DNA of 7,093 nt, from NCBI GenBank assembly GCA_937968065.1, contig CALBUD010000010.1, positions 1 to 7,093 of the forward strand, read 5' to 3'. Shown here in pieces: positions 1 through 6,988 of this stretch; the stretch's first letter is position 1; every line of letters begins with the position of its first letter. A model generated the notes under the pieces. It did no database searches. It saw only the letters and a list, made by a program, of their open reading frames with translations, and was not told the DNA's origin. This DNA comes from Candidatus Iainarchaeum sp. Its GTDB lineage: Archaea > Iainarchaeota > Iainarchaeia > Iainarchaeales > CSSED10-239. The position numbers and the translations under genes are program-made.

Positions 1-380
1 ACCACTTCATAAAGTTCTCACTCTAAAGCAGGGGCTATTAATTCTATTGTATTATTTGTAGGCTGTAAGTAGTCTGTTCAAAGTTGAAGTTTGACTCAAT
101 CTTTAAATATTAATAATGGATTAATTGTATTTTCATAACTATAATCTAATGAAAGAGTTGTTTGTCATTCTGTAGCTACAAAACTATTGTAAGCATATCA
201 TCATTGCAGAGGAGTTCAACTTCAACCTAAAGCATTAACCTTCACTTCACTTCAAGTTCTAGTAACAGATGTATTAGTTCAAGGTAATATCTCTGTAATC
301 ATCCTGTCTGTGTTTTCAGGAAGTTTTTCTAGTTTATCTCCGTCAGCTAAACGGAAATTTTGTATATCATTTAACGCCAT
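1..380 (-). CDS. Virion structural protein with a tail-fibre-like N-terminal domain. Partial: the 3' end runs off the left edge of the window.
   Basis: ATG at 380 lies 4 nt after the TAA of the upstream gene. The frame stays open to position 1 once 10 in-frame TGA codons are read as Gly. Translation: MALNDIQNFRLADGDKLEKLPENTDRMITEILPGTNTSVTRTGSEVKVNALGGSGTPLQGGYAYNSFVATEGQTTLSLDYSYENTINPLLIFKDGVKLQLGTDYLQPTNNTIELIAPALEGELYEV... The pattern F.ATEGQT...L.Y....L..F.DGV.L..G.DY......I.L resembles N-terminal domains of podovirus tail-fibre proteins. That resemblance is from memory and was not searched. Confidence 0.45.
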
Positions 381-675: not shown

Positions 676-712
676 AAAAAAAAGGAGAAGAGGAAAACTT
701 TCCCCTCTCTCC
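676..712 (-). terminator. Rho-independent terminator downstream of the major capsid gene
   Basis: On the minus strand, 11 nt after the capsid TAG, there is a GGAGAGAGG / CCTC(T)TCTCC stem of 9 bp with one bulge (684-712). It has a roughly 10-nt loop and is followed by a run of 8 T (plus-strand A-run 676-683). This is the only G+C-rich hairpin with a T-tract seen in the window. Confidence 0.7.
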
Positions 713-1834: not shown

Positions 1835-2218
1835 TTAAACAATTTTAAATCTACCAACTCTTGTATCAATTATTTCTACAAGTTCAACTTGGTCACCTGC
1901 AGCACCTGTTACAACAACTTGTGAAGCATTAATATCAAATTTGTCACCAACCATAGCTTGTGTTAAATCAGCGTCAGTGTTTAAATCAACTCTTAAGTTT
2001 TCATTTTTTCTTACAAATAAGATTTCTTCATTTGTTCAGTAAGTGTGTGAACCTGTAGCAACTCATTTAATTTCTTGTGTACCATCTGCTGAAACAACTT
2101 TACCAGAAGTTGCATCTATAGACAATAATTCAGAGTTGATAACAGATAAGTTGTCAGAAGCTATAGCTCCTTCATTCCCTGTAAAACCGTATCAAGTTTT
2201 TCTTAATTTATTTGCCAT
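1835..2218 (-). CDS. Small head-associated protein, possibly a capsid decoration protein (DUF2190-like), 127 aa
   Basis: ATG at 2218, TAA at 1835-1837, three in-frame TGA codons. Translation: MANKLRKTGYGFTGNEGAIASDNLSVINSELLSIDATSGKVVSADGTQEIKGVATGSHTYGTNEEILFVRKNENLRVDLNTDADLTQAMVGDKFDINASQVVVTGAAGDQVELVEIIDTRVGRFKIV. It appears beta-rich and sits between the scaffold and capsid genes. The pattern GVA...G..(h)V....L.......G..h.....V resembles small decoration proteins, which is a weak recollection only. Confidence 0.4.
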
Positions 2219-2238: not shown

Positions 2239-2940
2239 TTATTTATTTTTATAATTAGAAAGAACATTATCAAAGATTGAGTCAATTTCACTATTCTTTG
2301 ATTGTTGTTCTTCTCAAGAGGAAACTCCTCAAACACCACTAGCTCATCCTCAGTCTTTCATTAGTTTATATGCTAAGTCCTCAGGAGAGTATTTACTATT
2401 AAGAACTATATTACCTGCTCTTTTAACTCTTTCTTCAATAGGAAGAGAGTCAGAAATATATTTAAGTTCTTCTTCAACTTTAGCTACATCTTCATCAGAT
2501 AGAAAGTTATCATATTTACTTTTAAGCCTTGTTATTTCAGCTTCCATCTCTTTCTTATCTTGTTTCCATTTCATTAGCTTAAGTTCTTTTTCCAATTTAG
2601 TTGCTTTATCTTCTTCATAGTCGTCACTCTCTTCTTCTTTTGAAGACATAAAAGAGTCGCCATAAACAGCTTTAGCTTCTTCTAAACTAGAAAATCAATA
2701 AAGTTCTTTAATCACTTTATCTTGTAATTTTTTATCCTGAATTTCATTTATGTAACTTTTATCTTGTTTAGCTAGCCTAACTGCTAAATCAATTTTTTCT
2801 TGGTTACTTCTTGTATATTCAGCTTGAAGACTTTTATATTGGTCTTCTGGCACTACATTAGTACCTTGAGGAGATTGCCCACCATCAGTAGGTTCTTCTC
2901 ATTCTAGGAATTCCTTTTTATCAGCTTGTTCCTTGTTCAT
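2239..2940 (-). CDS. Scaffolding protein, 233 aa
   Basis: ATG at 2940 lies 2 nt after the upstream TAG. TAA at 2239-2241, six in-frame TGA codons, and the 99-aa track ORF is included in frame. The protein is highly charged with coiled-coil character (…KATKLEKELKLMKWKQDKKEMEAEITRLKSKYDNFLSDEDVAKVEEELKY…). It ends in a Gly/Ser linker, KDGGGASGVGGVSSGEEQQ, and lies upstream of the capsid gene. No protease gene is present in the module, consistent with a scaffold-dependent head. Confidence 0.65.
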
Positions 2941-2942
2941 AA

Positions 2943-3224
2943 CTATTTTTTGTTATTTTCTAAAATATTATATTTCCTAAAGAAACTCTTGAAGAATTTA
3001 TTTCATTGTAAAAATCCTCTTACCCATTCATCTGTAACATTTCATTCAATGAGCTCTTTACACACTCTATTATATGCAAAAATGCCTATTTTGTCAAGTA
3101 TGGCTTTATCTAGGGAAGAAAGCACTGTTTTTTCTTTCTCCTCTAGCTCAAGCTCTCTAATTATTTCAATAAGTTTTTTTTCTCTTCTCCACTCCAAAAA
3201 ATCTGTTATTATATTTTTTTTCAT
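2943..3224 (-). CDS. Hypothetical protein, 93 aa, either stand-alone or the -1 frameshift extension of the upstream gene
   Basis: ATG at 3224 overlaps the end of the upstream CDS by 16 nt. There are two in-frame TGA codons and the stop is TAG at 2943-2945. Translation: MKKNIITDFLEWRREKKLIEIIRELELEEKEKTVLSSLDKAILDKIGIFAYNRVCKELIEGNVTDEWVRGFLQGNKFFKSFFRKYNILENNKK. No motif recognised. Confidence 0.5.
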
Positions 3225-3694
3225 AGGTTTGGCATAAGTTCTAAAATTCTATTTTGAAGCTCCTCTTCTGATAAGTCAAGCAGCACTTCATTTATATTAG
3301 CTTCAATTTCTGTTTTTGGATTGTAGGCTTGATTAGTTTTTTCCAGCATTCTAAATGAATAGTCTACTACCTCTTTGTCTGTAAGTTCTCTATTTCACAT
3401 AATAGCTTCTTCAACATTTTGTTCAGCAAAGTCCCCAATTCTTTTTCTTCTTGAGTCTTTAATGCCTTCATAAGCTTCTTTTAGTTCTTCATATTTTCAT
3501 AATGTTTTATAGAAATATGGTGTACTGAAGCCTACATCTGCTACAGCATCTAAAAGCTTAACAGGTTGATTTGGTTTATATTTTCCTGTTTGCTTATCAT
3601 ATCAATAAGCTATAAGGTCAAATACTCTATAAAACTTATCTTTAGTTTCTTGTGTTAAAATTTTTCTATTTTTTGGTCTTCATCTTTTTCTCAT
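3209..3694 (-). CDS. AT-hook / helix-turn-helix DNA-binding protein, possible small terminase subunit, 161 aa
   Basis: ATG at 3694 lies 7 nt after the portal TAA. TAA at 3209-3211, five in-frame TGA codons. Translation: MRKRGRPKNRKILTQETKDKFYRVFDLIAYGYDKQTGKYKPNQPVKLLDAVADVGFSTPYFYKTLGKYEELKEAYEGIKDSRRKRIGDFAEQNVEEAIMGNRELTDKEVVDYSFRMLEKTNQAYNPKTEIEANINEVLLDLSEEELQNRILELMPNLGKKI. An N-terminal GRP motif, then an HTH-like segment (LLDAVADVGFSTPYFYKTL), then an EE(L/F).EAY...R helix is the layout of many phage small terminases. This is from memory and was not searched. Confidence 0.5.
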
Positions 3695-3701
3695 ATTCGT
3701 A

Positions 3702-5456
3702 TTATTTGTTATTAGCTAAACTACCAATAAGTGGAACTGGATTTGATTGGTTTCTTTGTTCTGGTGGAACATAGTTTGGATTTGATGGGTCATTAGCATC
3801 ATTACTCACCCCTTTCATTTGTTTCTTTATTTTATCAAGTCTTGAAGCAGCAGATATGTTATTAGGAGTTTCTCATAATAATAAATCAGAGTCAAGCTTA
3901 AATGCTTTTGCACCTTCAACAAAATATGCTTTAGGGTTCATTATAGGTTTACCATCTTCTCAAATTAAATTACCAAAGATTTGTCCAAACTCAAGAAGTT
4001 TATTTTTTTCTTTTTCTTCACTAACTCACAATATAGACTCAGTGATAGGAAGAACATTAAACATTCAAGAAATTAATCAAGGGGCAACAGTGAATGTACC
4101 ATATCCATTCTTTATACTTTTAACATTACCATCCTTATCCATACTTTGACCCTTAACAGGTATTTCGTGAGTTTTATGTTTATATTCAAACTTAATATTA
4201 CTCATTCTAAGTCTAGCAAGTCTAGCAAAGAAATTGTAAGCATTTTGTTTTAATAATAAGTTTGTTCTCTTTCTTGCACTTTCTATTTTACTTTCTGTTT
4301 TTGTTGCTGTTTCACTAGCACCTAATATTTGAGATTTAAAGTCAATTCAAGTTTTAATAATAAGGTCTTCATCAACTTTTCTTTCAGCTTCTATAACACT
4401 ATTAGCATTTATATTAGGAGAGAAATGAGAGATTGCTTCTTTTTCAACTCTAGCAAATTTATTAGTACCTATTTCTACAGTTGTTTCATCAAAGTCAGCA
4501 TCTGGGTCAATAGTTGTAAAACCAAATTGTGCTTTTATTACATCTATATTTAAAGCCCTAAGAGCATCTTTATAATTTATATCATTTTCTAACATTTCAT
4601 ATTCACCTGCATCATATGTTCTATCTTCTAAAGCATAATTAGAGAACGAACAAAAAGGAAGTTCTTTATGTTGATATGGTATAATAGAGTTTCTAATTTC
4701 CACGCCATTAACTAATACAATAAGAGAGTCTTCTGCTTTATTATAATATCTAAGCTCAGTTACTAAGTTGTCTTCATTTAAAGGACTAAATTCAACATCA
4801 CCTTCTGAGTTTAAATAATAATATTGACCTTTAGGTATATTAGTTTCACTAATAGTGTAGTTTGGATTATTTGAGAATGTGTTTAAAAATTTTCTTCTAT
4901 CCCAAGTTCTAATCCATATAGCTTCATTAGCTGTTTCTATATCATATCAATCGTGATAGAAATTTTCCCAAGGTATATATTCACAATAAACACCATCATA
5001 CTCTGTCATAGTGTTTTCATTCCATTTAATTTCATCTCCAGATAGGTATGGCTCTTTTATTTTTCTTTTAATAGTTCTAAGCCCTTCATACATATATCAG
5101 TTACCATATTTAAGAGCCGAATAAATAACCTTCATTATTTCCTTATCTGTCTTACTTGTTATCCATTCATAGTCCCAAACTTTTTTAATTATTCTTGAAG
5201 CCTTTTTTGCTTCTCAATCAAGAGGTATAAATTCATATTCTTGCACTCAGTTTAATATTTCAGCAGCTTTACTATTTATAATAGAGAAAGCTATATTTGT
5301 ATCATAAGAGCTTTTAGTCGGGTCAGCTTCTAATGTTTTTTGTCCTATATAGTTCTTTTTCCATTCCCTTTGTTTTACAGAGAGTGTTCTTTTAAGCCCT
5401 CATAAGTATTGAAGCCTCTCCTCTGCAAAAGCTAAAGCTTTTTTTTCTTTTTCCAT
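3702..5456 (-). CDS. Portal protein, 584 aa
   Basis: ATG at 5456 lies 24 nt after the terminase TAA. TAA at 3702-3704. Eleven in-frame TGA codons and no TAA/TAG were found when each codon was read by hand, and the 118-aa track ORF is included in frame. N-terminus: MEKEKKALAFAEERLQYLGGLKRTLSVKQREWKKNYIGQKTLEADPTKSSYDTNIAFSIINSKAAEILNGVQEYEFIPLDGEAKKASRIIKKVWDYEW... The C-terminus is disordered (…NDANDPSNPNYVPPEQRNQSNPVPLIGSLANNK). Its size, its position immediately after the large terminase and its portal-like N-terminal layout support the call. Confidence 0.75.
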
Positions 5457-5480: not shown

Positions 5481-6926
5481 TTAATAAGGTTGTCTATAGT
5501 TTCATTTATAATATCCCACCTTGTTCCATTTCTCTCAATGTTTTTCTTGAAACTTTCTTTCTGCTCTAGTGATAGTTTTATTAGGTTTTATCGCCCATAT
5601 AATATATCTAAGAGCGTCAAGTTGATGGTCGTCTTCCTTCACAACTTCTCAGTCTTTACCTTTTTCTTTATAGTGATGTTGCTCAAGTTCTTTTACTAAT
5701 GTGTCTTCCAATTTATTGCTAATAAATATTTTTTCATCAGCAAACATTTGATTAAGTTTAAATATTGAAGCCTTCCTATTACTCTCATCTCTTTCACCTT
5801 TCTCCCATTTATTAGCAGGTTTAGTTTTAAGTCCCATCTTAGCCAACTCAGTTCTTTCTCTCTTAGCTCAAGAGTCGGCAACTATATATTCCAAACTTAT
5901 TTTATATTTCCTAACAAGAGCTTCAATCTTTTCCTTTATTTCAGACAGATATAATCAAGACTGATTAAAACCATCAAATATGTAATGGTTATTATCACTA
6001 TCAACAGCAACTAATACAAATCAAGTGGGGTGGGTGATACCTAAGTCTAGTCCTCAATAGAACCTAACTCAAGGAAGTGTATGGGGGTCAAAATGAGCTA
6101 CTAGATTATTAAGCCTTGAAAAACTATTATAAACTAATCAAGTAGGGGGTATAAACTCACCATTAAGCCTCATCTTCTTATCTTGCTCACTCAAATTATT
6201 AGCCCACGAATGGTCGGCGTGTTTGTTCTCTAATGAGCTAAATAAGAACTTAATTCTATTATCATTTTCTACATATTCACTCTTATAAAAGTATTCATAT
6301 AGAGGTGTTAATCAAGAAAGAGGAGTCATTGTTATCAACATTTGAGACTTACCTGTACGGGTTCTAGCTAACAGCTCTAACCATACACCTTTATCTGTAG
6401 GTTCTTCATCAACAACTATAAAATCTGGATTTCACCCTTGAACCCTTTCCCTACCTTGGTCGTAAGTTTTAATACTAATTTTAGCTCAATTAATAAGCTT
6501 TATCTCTTGCAACACTCAAGAGCTTCTTTTAGGAGCACCCTTAATAAGCTCTGGTGGAATTCTTGTATTTGAATATTCTCATAATAGATAAGGTTCAATA
6601 GTTCAGGAAACATTACTTCAAGATTTAGTTACAATCCGTATATTCTTTTTAGCTCATATATAGGGAAGTTTATATTTAGTTGAATATTCTCCTATAGCTA
6701 AATTAACTGCTGTGTACATTCAATAGAATGTTTTTCAGGCTCAGTTTCATCATTGAAATAATATTTGCTTATATCTAGGTCTACCGTCTTCTTTCTTTAA
6801 ATTAAGGACAGCGTGAACTTCTTTTTGATGTTTTTGTAGTTCAACCTCAGTGATAGCATAAAACTTTTTTCTCTTATCTAATATGGAATAGAGTTCAGCA
6901 ATTTTTTGTTTATTGTTTTGTTCCAT
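5481..6926 (-). CDS. terL: Terminase large subunit (ATPase plus RNase-H-like nuclease), 481 aa
   Basis: ATG at 6926, TAA at 5481-5483, 22 in-frame TGA codons. Walker A is GGNGAGKT (6729-6752, four of the Gly are TGA). Walker B is DFIVVDEEP (6402-6425). The coupling motif is LITMTP. Other terminase-typical segments are NGEF and PTGLVY. The nuclease motifs are FYGGLDLG (6039-6059) and KEDDHQLDALRY (5604-5633). The 65-aa track ORF is in frame with all of these. Confidence 0.93.
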
Positions 6927-6959: not shown

Positions 6960-6988
6960 ATTATATAAGAAAAGAAGGGTTTTGTCAA
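6960..6988 (-). promoter_or_regulatory. Sigma70-type promoter driving the terminase/head operon
   Basis: The minus strand reads TTGACA (6988-6983), an exactly 17-nt spacer (aaacccttcttttctta), then TATAAT (6965-6960). This is a perfect consensus -35 and -10. It predicts a start near 6952 and a leader of about 27 nt before the terL ATG at 6926. Confidence 0.6.

Follow-up and report, generated by a model that had tools for sequence, protein, structure and literature searches.

The window, by which we mean the whole 7,093-nt stretch of DNA analysed here, very probably carries a module for packaging and head morphogenesis from an uncultured tailed phage that uses genetic code 25 and has a code-25 bacterium as its host. 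With TGA as sense, all ORFs lie on the minus strand, and only then do nine genes tile the window. The density of non-overlapping ORFs is 0.958 with TGA as sense versus 0.284 under code 11; it is 0.325 with TAG as sense and 0.502 with TAA as sense. The nine genes contain 63 TGA, 6 TAA and 2 TAG codons in frame. The TAA and TAG codons make up all eight stops, each at a gene end, and TGA is never a terminator. Such a pattern greatly exceeds what chance would produce. The window is AT-rich (30% GC), and TGA provides 63 of its approximately 160 glycine codons.

The genes run in the order terL, portal, two small genes, a scaffold-like gene, another small gene, major capsid, a helix-hairpin-helix (HhH) ORF and the start of a tail-fibre gene (Table 1). 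The assignment to a Caudoviricetes packaging and head module is based on TerL domains that score above threshold, on a capsid protein recognized through its syntenic homologues, and on a portal protein recognized by synteny and size.

Table 1. Features of the window (x in a motif marks a TGA codon).
Feature	Position	Strand	Remarks
terL, large terminase, 481 aa	5481..6926	-	22 TGA, 15 GGN, 5 TGG, 1 CGG; stop TAA
Walker A P-loop GGNGAGKT	6729..6752	-	TGA TGA AAC TGA GCC TGA AAA ACA
Sole CGG codon of the window	6636..6638	-	terL codon 97, KKNI-CGG-IVTKS; probably Trp
Sigma-70-like promoter match TTGACA-17-TATAAT, upstream of terL	6960..6988	-	12/12 consensus; predicted from consensus alone
Portal-like protein, 584 aa	3702..5456	-	11 TGA, 23 GGN, 7 TGG; stop TAA
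g6, 161 aa, basic N-terminus MRKR-TGA-RPKNRK	3209..3694	-	5 TGA; ORF
g5, 93 aa	2943..3224	-	2 TGA; stop TAG; ORF
Scaffold-like acidic coiled-coil protein, 233 aa	2239..2940	-	assigned from position 5' of the capsid gene and composition
TGA-rich Gly linker of the scaffold-like protein	2314-2352	-	KD-x-G-x-ASGV-x-GVSS-x-EE
g3, 127 aa, between the scaffold and capsid genes	1835..2218	-	3 TGA, 10 GGN; ORF
Major capsid protein, 362 aa	724..1812	-	3 TGA vs 30 GGN; stop TAG
Terminator-like hairpin and T-run, directly 3' of the capsid gene	688..709	-	9-pair stem, then CTCCTTTTTT
Helix-hairpin-helix ORF, 89 aa	385..654	-	TGA at 535-537, giving a G-I-G hairpin
g1, tail-fibre-like, N-terminal 126 aa, truncated at the contig end	3..380	-	10 TGA vs 2 GGN

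The first-pass annotation had recognized a terminase P-loop in the codon string CAA TGA TGA AAC TGA GCC TGA AAA ACA. This string exactly matches the reverse complement of positions 6729-6755 and lies in frame within a 481-codon ORF, the glycine content of which rises, as had been claimed, from 3.1% to 7.7% when its 22 TGA are added to its 15 GGN codons. The nuclease motif FY-x-GLDLG, with TGA at x, and the TGG-encoded tryptophans of GVWLEL, HSWANN and YIIWAI were likewise found in terL. With TGA translated as Gly, the Pfam domains Terminase_6N (41.5 bits) and Terminase_6C (28.7 bits) were both detected above their thresholds. The Terminase_6N score was reduced to 22.2 bits with X at the TGA positions, and the domain was undetectable in the table-4 translation because this inserts Trp at TGA; Terminase_6C falls under its threshold in the Trp translation. 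The protein also matched PHROG 2, terminase large subunit (E=3.5e-27), and 82 TerL homologues were found. At the four TGA columns of the P-loop, standard-code homologues carry Gly in 37/43, 43/43, 35/43 and 43/43 cases, and 22 recoded relatives carry TGA or GGN only, never TGG.

Codon-level alignments, made with TGA masked, gave the same answer over whole genes. Opposite the 22 TGA columns of terL, recoded relatives display GGN 85 times, TGA 77 times and TGG not once, and 62 standard-code homologues display Gly in 400 of 1051 cells and Trp in 3; at residue 263, Gly is found in all 62. The TGA columns of the genes other than terL pair with TGA (65) and GGN (61) in relatives; for the portal gene, the numbers are 40 and 35, respectively. 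The closest relative, L082, carries GGN 40 times, TGA 21 times and TGG never opposite the window's TGA codons. A Codetta-like score for TGA in the window favoured Gly (log-odds +10.6 nats), followed by Glu (-20.6), with Trp at -41.6, and the family-wide log-odds for Gly were +2092 and +452. The homologue-column test proposed in the first-pass annotation is thus passed: TGA is glycine and not tryptophan. TGG keeps its own identity. Outside terL, the TGG columns of the window pair with TGG (69), Phe (19) and Tyr (18); at such columns, TGA fills 2 of 128 cells in the other genes and 1 of 53 cells in terL, and the family-wide log-odds of TGG for Trp are +757. Code 25 implies in-frame TGA in conserved genes but not as a terminator, TGA aligned with Gly in homologues, and a UGG that stays Trp, separate from UGA; we observed all three. 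We did not observe TGA aligned with Trp, which code 4 implies. In the most AT-rich relatives, up to 97% of the Gly codons are TGA. A collagen-like Gly-X-Y repeat, suspected in L007 (18443-19327) and considered as an orthogonal test of Gly, was rejected because GXY runs are absent; the domain is rich in Gly and would still look absurd as Trp.

Code 25 also implies a tRNA(UCA) bearing the Gly identity elements G1:C72, C2:G71, G3:C70 and U73, and a translating cell that has lost release factor 2. The window contains no tRNA genes, and no tRNA(UCA) was found across about 25 related loci. An ARAGORN 'tRNA-???' call in L013 was considered as a UGA decoder and discarded: it is a genuine tRNA-like gene (Rfam 57.8 bits), with no UCA and an anticodon arm that is closed and extended. 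One relative, with 44% TerL identity to the window, could be fully rebuilt as a 42,152-nt genome. Its coding density is 0.885 with TGA as sense versus 0.176, it carries 0 tRNA genes, and TGA occurs in 55 of its 60 genes (92%), replication and early genes included. Among these are genes for a ribonucleotide reductase (RNR), a kinase and a DnaB-like helicase (P-loop GAPSxVGKT), together with the motifs DFTMxNxSFxVAC (methyltransferase) and NHKDxNKLNN (HNH). With no tRNA of its own and with TGA spread over 55 of 60 genes, this complete relative has to depend on a code-25 host for decoding. The phage itself would supply no UGA decoder, in which case its mRNAs would be translatable only where tRNA-Gly(UCA) is present and RF2 termination at UGA is absent; such a cell would belong to the code-25 bacteria in the Absconditabacteria/Gracilibacteria lineage. 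A host of this type, already proposed in the first-pass annotation, is well supported but indirectly, by the lack of tRNA, by TGA in 92% of the relative's genes and by the CGG-as-Trp signal described below. We searched genome contigs and metagenomes with the TerL alignment, which gave at least 1 and at least 8 loci, respectively; one of the patterns in each search was the generic P-loop. Among the matches listed, the sole taxonomic hint is the relative L003, whose 3.5-kb contig belongs to a MAG with the label 'Patescibacteria group bacterium'; phage contigs, however, cannot be binned reliably.

Three other explanations were weighed. Under the first, TGA encodes Trp (code 4) and the phage infects Mollicutes or a code-4 endosymbiont. 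This would suit the AT-richness of the contig, as code-4 organisms share it, and agrees with the database protein of the contig (P0001), which shows W at all 22 TGA positions. Nevertheless, we consider this reading almost certainly wrong: TGG is absent from the TGA columns of recoded relatives, standard-code homologues have Trp in just 3 of 1051 cells, the Trp log-odds are strongly negative, and a Trp translation loses the Terminase_6N match and puts Terminase_6C below threshold. It would also turn the P-loop into QWWNWAWKT, at a site where L006 and L087 encode GGNGSGKT with four genuine GGN codons.

The phage might instead infect a standard-code host and switch code by itself through a phage-encoded suppressor tRNA-Gly(UCA), as do TAG- and TGA-recoded phages that infect gut Bacteroidota and Firmicutes. 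Standard-code hosts do have recoded phages, of which just 35-40% carry a suppressor tRNA (10.1101/2021.08.26.457843; PMC10746230); moreover, the window holds late genes only, where such phages concentrate recoding, and a 7-kb contig is part of a genome, so that a tRNA could sit elsewhere. Code switching of this kind should leave a suppressor tRNA and standard-code early genes, but the complete relative displays neither, with TGA extending to its RNR, helicase, kinase and methyltransferase genes. Its 92% fits the ~90% of genes recoded in code-25 phages attributed to Absconditabacteria and Gracilibacteria, as opposed to 26-71% in code-switching phages (10.1101/2021.08.26.457843; PMC10746230). 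Together with the absence of tRNA(UCA) from the related loci and a CGG-as-Trp signal that would be senseless in a standard-code host, these data make code switching very improbable. Finally, the window could derive from a prophage, or a remnant of one, integrated into a code-25 bacterial chromosome, which would leave the codon reading unchanged. All Absconditabacteria and Gracilibacteria prophages reported so far are densely TGA-recoded (10.1101/2021.08.26.457843; PMC10746230), and two relatives are located in MAG assemblies. However, all close homologues lie on phage-sized contigs (≤55 kb), with long chromosomal contigs yielding none, the rebuilt 42-kb relative comprises phage-like genes only, without obvious host flank, and no integrase was found in the parts read. 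We therefore regard a prophage origin as unlikely.

Besides UGA as Gly, Codetta predicts CGA and CGG as Trp in Absconditabacteria (Shulgina & Eddy 2021, PMC8629427). The window's only CGG falls at a Trp/hydrophobic column of terL: recoded relatives carry W10, L7, Y4, I2, F1 and K1 there, with no Arg, and the residues of standard-code TerLs include I14, W14 and R6 (Arg in 6/55). The Trp-minus-Arg log-odds of this codon is +5.9, a value reached by 0 of 348 AGA columns. The window's CGG most likely encodes Trp rather than Arg, a reading that rests on one codon. In CGA-poor relatives, CGG at 7 distinct columns scored +21.3 for Trp and -7.5 for Arg, a difference of 28.8, versus a null maximum of 7.6 (empirical P <5e-5). 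CGG thus appears to align with Trp and not Arg, as in the extended code of the Absconditabacteria type. CGA is absent (count 0) from the window and its clade, and AGA is the dominant Arg codon (74/91). The 10 CGA sites of CGA-poor relatives show no consistent residue, and several, including those at the DALRY motif, resemble insertion or frameshift boundaries. By contrast, CGA-rich loci of the phage family clearly read CGA as Arg. On balance, we slightly favour a lineage code that departs at least twice, with TGA as Gly and CGG as Trp and with CGA purged, in a TerL family where clades with CGA/CGG as Arg are interleaved. Should this be true, phages follow the sense-codon reassignments of their CPR hosts, CGG/CGA usage is a marker of host code that divides code-25 phages between two host types, and phage genes lend independent support to the so far purely computational prediction of CGG-to-Trp reassignment in Absconditabacteria. 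If the window's CGG is indeed Trp, its host would be one of the code-25 bacteria with CGG reassigned, that is, Absconditabacteria and some Gracilibacteria.

UGA as Gly has been reported only in Absconditabacteria (SR1) and Gracilibacteria (NCBI table 25; PMC8629427). The code of these bacteria resembles that of the window in TGA as Gly, TGG as Trp, a very rare CGG at Trp columns and AGA-dominant Arg; theirs is cellular, whereas the contig is viral, and decoder tRNAs and RF2 loss belong to the host. The novelty claimed in the first-pass annotation was overstated, as code-25 phages assigned to such hosts have already been described by terminase alignment and CRISPR-spacer matching (Borges 2021, Liu 2023), and the contig adds one more. 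Phages linked to Absconditabacteria by CRISPR spacers mostly use code 25 (10.1101/2021.08.26.457843; PMC10746230). As far as their descriptions tell, the published code-25 phages likewise have TGA opposite Gly in terminase alignments and AT-rich genomes, and neither they, with ~90% of genes bearing in-frame TGA, nor the rebuilt relative, with 55/60, need code-switching machinery. They differ in that their hosts were linked by CRISPR spacers, whereas that of our contig is proposed from its genetic code, and in that the papers describing them are silent on CGG, which the present lineage appears to read as Trp. Lak, crAss-like and similar phages of standard-code gut bacteria are also uncultured, AT-rich tailed phages with in-frame stops in structural genes, but insert Trp at TGA (code 4) or Gln at TAG (code 15) instead of Gly; unlike them, the complete relative lacks a suppressor tRNA and is recoded in early as well as late genes. 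Terminase_6-type TerLs of cultured Arthrobacter, Pseudomonas and Pelagibacter phages share the 6N ATPase, the 6C RNaseH-like nuclease and the Walker A motif GxxGxGKT, but are only 22-27% identical to the window's TerL, which has no close cultured relative.

Table 4 was applied by the public protein database to the contig and to most of the 80-odd TerL relatives, and puts 22 false tryptophans in the contig's TerL. Once code 25 is recognized, the annotation is repaired and the contig stands out as viral, its probable host being an uncultivated code-25 CPR bacterium without isolates. Judged by the searchable literature, the new elements are modest: CGG as Trp in part of the family, a TGA share of up to 97% of Gly codons, and capsid avoidance of TGA. 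Taken together, these three may allow the host code to be typed from sequence, and suggest that decoding UGA as Gly could be costly.

The remaining genes were compared with their counterparts in relatives. No Rfam family matched within the window, and Pfam and PHROGs returned nothing for the portal, g6, g5, scaffold-like, g3 and g1 genes. The portal-like assignment relies on adjacency to terL, size and a conserved homologue in every relative. The scaffold-like protein, in which the linker quoted in the first-pass annotation is present, has homologues in 12 relatives, which carry GGN (7) and TGA (5) at its TGA columns. Syntenic ORFs of 131-153 aa correspond to g3, and no homologue of g5 was detected in the fetched loci. 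An AT-hook RGRP had been proposed at the start of g6: MRKR-x-RP is indeed there, but the motif is not conserved among relatives. Because the closest of them has KR-x-RKK, also with TGA, the AT-hook brings no independent information and was dropped as evidence. The g6 protein gave no significant family match and belongs to a homologue family in the relatives, with variable basic N-termini. In the HhH ORF, KVK-x-IGPATV with TGA at 535-537 is present as described; the TGA column shows TGA in two and GGN in one of three aligned relatives, and the Pfam HHH_5 score rises from 16.6 bits with Trp to 23.5 with Gly, staying under the cut-off of 27 in either case. The N-terminus of g1, MALNDIQNFRLADGDKLEKLP, matches MPLNNIKNYRLEDxDKLDKLP of a 659-aa protein in the relative L015 (17506-19485).

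The major capsid protein matched PHROG 371, major head protein, and scored 19.7 bits against Pfam Mu-like_gpT (cut-off 20.1); its syntenic homologues in relatives match PF25209 Phage_capsid_4. The capsid gene avoids TGA (Fisher p=3.6e-5), and this avoidance is consistent. Since TGA is avoided in a highly expressed gene, UGA-Gly decoding may, as this suggests, be a less efficient or less accurate route.

When the window was read with the standard code (table 11), only scattered short ORFs were recovered. Reading TGA as a sense codon revealed nine closely packed minus-strand genes and raised the non-overlapping ORF density from 0.284 to 0.958, a density that was not restored by treating TAG (0.325) or TAA (0.502) as sense. 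These genes contain 63 TGA, 6 TAA and 2 TAG codons in frame, and every TAA or TAG is a gene end. The putative regulatory sites listed with them are consensus matches.

Features of the window (ORFs called with TGA as sense)
Feature	Position	Strand	Remark
Inverted repeat TTGGCT-TAATAT-AGCCAA	7019-7036		upstream of the promoter-like site of terL
Putative sigma-70 promoter, TTGACA-17-TATAAT	6960-6988	-	perfect 12/12 match, upstream of terL
terL	5481-6926	-
Terminase P-loop string	6729-6755	-	CAA TGA TGA AAC TGA GCC TGA AAA ACA, exact reverse complement
Sole CGG codon	6636-6638	-	terL codon 97, Trp/hydrophobic column
Portal-sized gene	3702-5456	-
g6	3209-3694	-
TGA of the RGRP string	3680-3682	-	g6 codon 5
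g5	2943-3224	-
Putative sigma-70 promoter, TTGACA-17-TATAAT	3069-3097	-	second perfect 12/12 match, within g5, upstream of the scaffold-like gene
Scaffold-like gene	2239-2940	-
g3	1835-2218	-
Major capsid gene	724-1812	-
Terminator-like hairpin and T-run	688-709	-	directly after the capsid gene; consensus match
Small HhH ORF	385-654	-
Tail-fibre-like gene	3-380	-	truncated start

The first-pass annotation proposed that TGA encodes glycine (code 25) and not tryptophan (code 4). Code 4 is the reading given in the public protein database to the window's own TerL (P0001) and to most of its 82 homologues, in which TGA is rendered as W. At the protein level, W and G together amount to about 8% of these TerLs and are inversely traded, suggesting one amino acid served by two codon types. 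To avoid circularity, the DNA of relatives was fetched and TGA was masked as X for alignment, yielding a recoded set (L001-L015, with 6-40 in-frame TGAs per terL) and 62 more distant standard-code homologues with no in-frame TGA. At the 22 TGA columns of the window's terL, the recoded relatives carried GGN in 85 and TGA in 77 of 274 cells, and never TGG; the standard-code homologues carried Gly in 400 and Trp in 3 of 1051 cells. The four Walker-A columns were Gly in 37/43, 43/43, 35/43 and 43/43 standard-code homologues, and residue 263 was Gly in all 62. These four P-loop glycines were exclusively TGA or GGN in 22 recoded relatives, two of which use GGN for all four. Conversely, the window's GGN columns were matched equally by TGA and GGN in the recoded relatives, and its TGG columns paired with TGG, F, Y and H, in line with the proposal that TGG is retained for Trp. 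The same held in the other window genes, where TGA columns paired with TGA (65) and GGN (61), and TGG columns with TGG (69), F (19) and Y (18). In L082, the nearest relative (amino-acid identity about 73%), the window's TGAs faced GGN 40 times, TGA 21 times and TGG never. A Codetta-style log-odds computed on standard-code columns only gave +10.6 nats for Gly, -20.6 for the next-best Glu and -41.6 for Trp. Curated models responded likewise: Terminase_6N reached 41.5 bits when TGA was read as Gly and 22.2 when it was X, and was undetectable with Trp, while Terminase_6C fell from 28.7 bits with Gly to 19.6 with Trp, and HHH_5 from 23.5 to 16.6. Taken together, the alignments, the log-odds and the curated-model scores establish with near certainty, and as firmly as sequence analysis permits, that TGA is read as Gly in the window.

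Every motif string quoted in the first-pass annotation was found in the window, and its glycine count for terL (15 GGN plus 22 TGA in 481 codons) was correct. The RGRP string of g6, described as an AT-hook, is present, but it is not conserved: the closest relative reads KR-TGA-RKK, and the g6 N-termini of other relatives are basic and unrelated to it. We conclude that code-25 phage proteins are systematically mis-annotated in the public collection through translation with table 4. These translations introduce 10-40 false tryptophans per TerL, and precomputed Pfam hits are often absent.

Neither TGA-Gly phages nor the terminase alignment approach is new. Borges et al. (10.1101/2021.08.26.457843) aligned terminases with stops as X and described a subset that uses code 25 and is predicted to infect Absconditabacteria. 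Liu et al. (PMC10746230) used spacers to assign 50 phages to Absconditabacteria, of which 44 clearly use code 25, and reported that all prophages of Absconditabacteria and Gracilibacteria are code 25. The window is a new, unisolated example.

In the Codetta screen, Absconditabacteria are also predicted to read CGA and CGG as Trp, and Gracilibacteria are split on CGG (Shulgina & Eddy 2021, PMC8629427). Arginine-box codons in the window are AGA (74), AGG (14), CGT (2) and a single CGG, with no CGC or CGA. We analyzed CGA and CGG in 28 non-redundant recoded loci and eight shared gene families, with ambiguous codons masked and column profiles taken from other loci; controls behaved as expected (TGG as W, AGA as R, TGA as G). 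The phage family divides into two. In CGA-rich loci (GC 33-37%), which are spread over three separate TerL clades, CGA scored as Arg (+128 nats, 109 sites) and CGG occupied hydrophilic positions. By contrast, CGA was uninformative in the CGA-poor loci, which include the window and its own TerL clade (no CGA), and CGG scored +21.3 for Trp and -7.5 for Arg (7 columns, one site per distinct column); one portal column holding CGG was W in 25/25 other loci. The summed W-minus-R score, 28.8, exceeded the AGA-column null (mean -15.9, maximum 7.6, 20,000 draws) and fell within the range of true Trp columns (5.3-31.0), so that CGG very probably encodes Trp in this part of the family, in agreement with the reassignment predicted for Absconditabacteria. 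At the window's CGG column, recoded relatives carried W10 L7 Y4 I2 F1 K1 and no Arg, and standard-code TerLs I14 W14 R6; its W-minus-R of +5.9 was equalled by 0/348 AGA columns. Because this is one codon, its reading as Trp is probable but not proven. CGG is not mentioned by Borges et al. or Liu et al.

In three relatives, a CGA codon lies precisely at a break of the DALRY motif in terL (aa 443 of REL42, the 42-kb relative described below, aa 456 of L012 and aa 460 of L014, whose ORF has 611 codons). The sequence beyond is divergent, and the break may be an insertion, intein or frameshift boundary.

TGA usage is uneven. The capsid gene contains 3 TGA and 30 GGN, versus 59 and 64 in the remaining window (Fisher p = 3.6e-5). 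This avoidance recurs in relatives (L001, L007, L012, L083-L085), some capsid genes having no TGA, and suggests that TGA is not an optimal codon for Gly. The relatives richest in AT (GC 24-26%) use TGA for 90-97% of the glycines of terL and portal, and for 27-50% of those in the capsid gene; L083 (GC 26%) has 34 TGA versus 1 GGN in both terL and portal, and TGA has likewise almost replaced GGN in those of L084 (GC 24.5%).

No tRNA or other Rfam match was found in the window, and no anticodon-UCA tRNA among about 25 related loci. A complete relative, IMGVR_UViG_3300005613_000139 (REL42; 42,152 nt, 29.6% GC, TerL 44% identical to the window's), was rebuilt from loci L081, L080 and L015 by stepwise walking along the sequence. 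Its coding density rises from 0.176 with code 11 to 0.885 when TGA is sense, it uses 510 TGA, 304 GGN and 120 TGG codons, and TGA occurs in 55/60 genes; it contains no tRNA gene. Canonical glycines of its early genes are TGA (x), as in the motifs of a DnaB-like helicase (GAPSxVGKT), a kinase P-loop (GVSxSGKT), a methyltransferase (DFTMxNxSFxVAC) and an HNH protein (NHKDxNKLNN). According to Borges et al., code-25 phages of code-25 hosts have about 90% of genes recoded, whereas code-switching phages in standard-code hosts have 26-71% recoded and often carry suppressor tRNAs. The complete relative follows the former pattern. Its TGA-bearing early genes and lack of tRNAs lead us to infer that the phage of the window depends on the host for reading UGA as Gly, and that this host is, in all likelihood, a code-25 bacterium providing the UGA decoder. 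The only bacteria known to read UGA as Gly are Absconditabacteria and Gracilibacteria (PMC8629427), the host type named in the first-pass annotation. Among the matches listed, a 'Patescibacteria group bacterium' MAG includes one relative, on a short contig, and another is located within an NCBI MAG; no GenBank phage has a TerL closer than 27% identity to the window's. Both the CGG signal and the patterns of codon usage, apparently unreported in the literature searched, are natural consequences of host dependence.

Further oddities were seen in relatives. L013 carries a tRNA-like gene (2893-2977, minus strand; Rfam tRNA, 57.8 bits) with 20 nt in place of the 7-nt anticodon loop; these form an arm that is closed and extended and is capped by a 3-nt UUG loop, and the gene has no UCA anticodon. 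REL42 encodes a 1117-aa ribonucleotide-reductase-like ORF (5274-8627) that, from its translation, appears to hold a large in-frame insert. Finally, a 294-codon ORF of L007 (18443-19327; protein start ALVIAGGGGGGYHQGGGGGAGG) contains 62 TGA and 32 GGN codons, that is 32% Gly if TGA is Gly; a collagen-like GXY repeat was rejected, and its product is a Gly-rich tail-associated protein.
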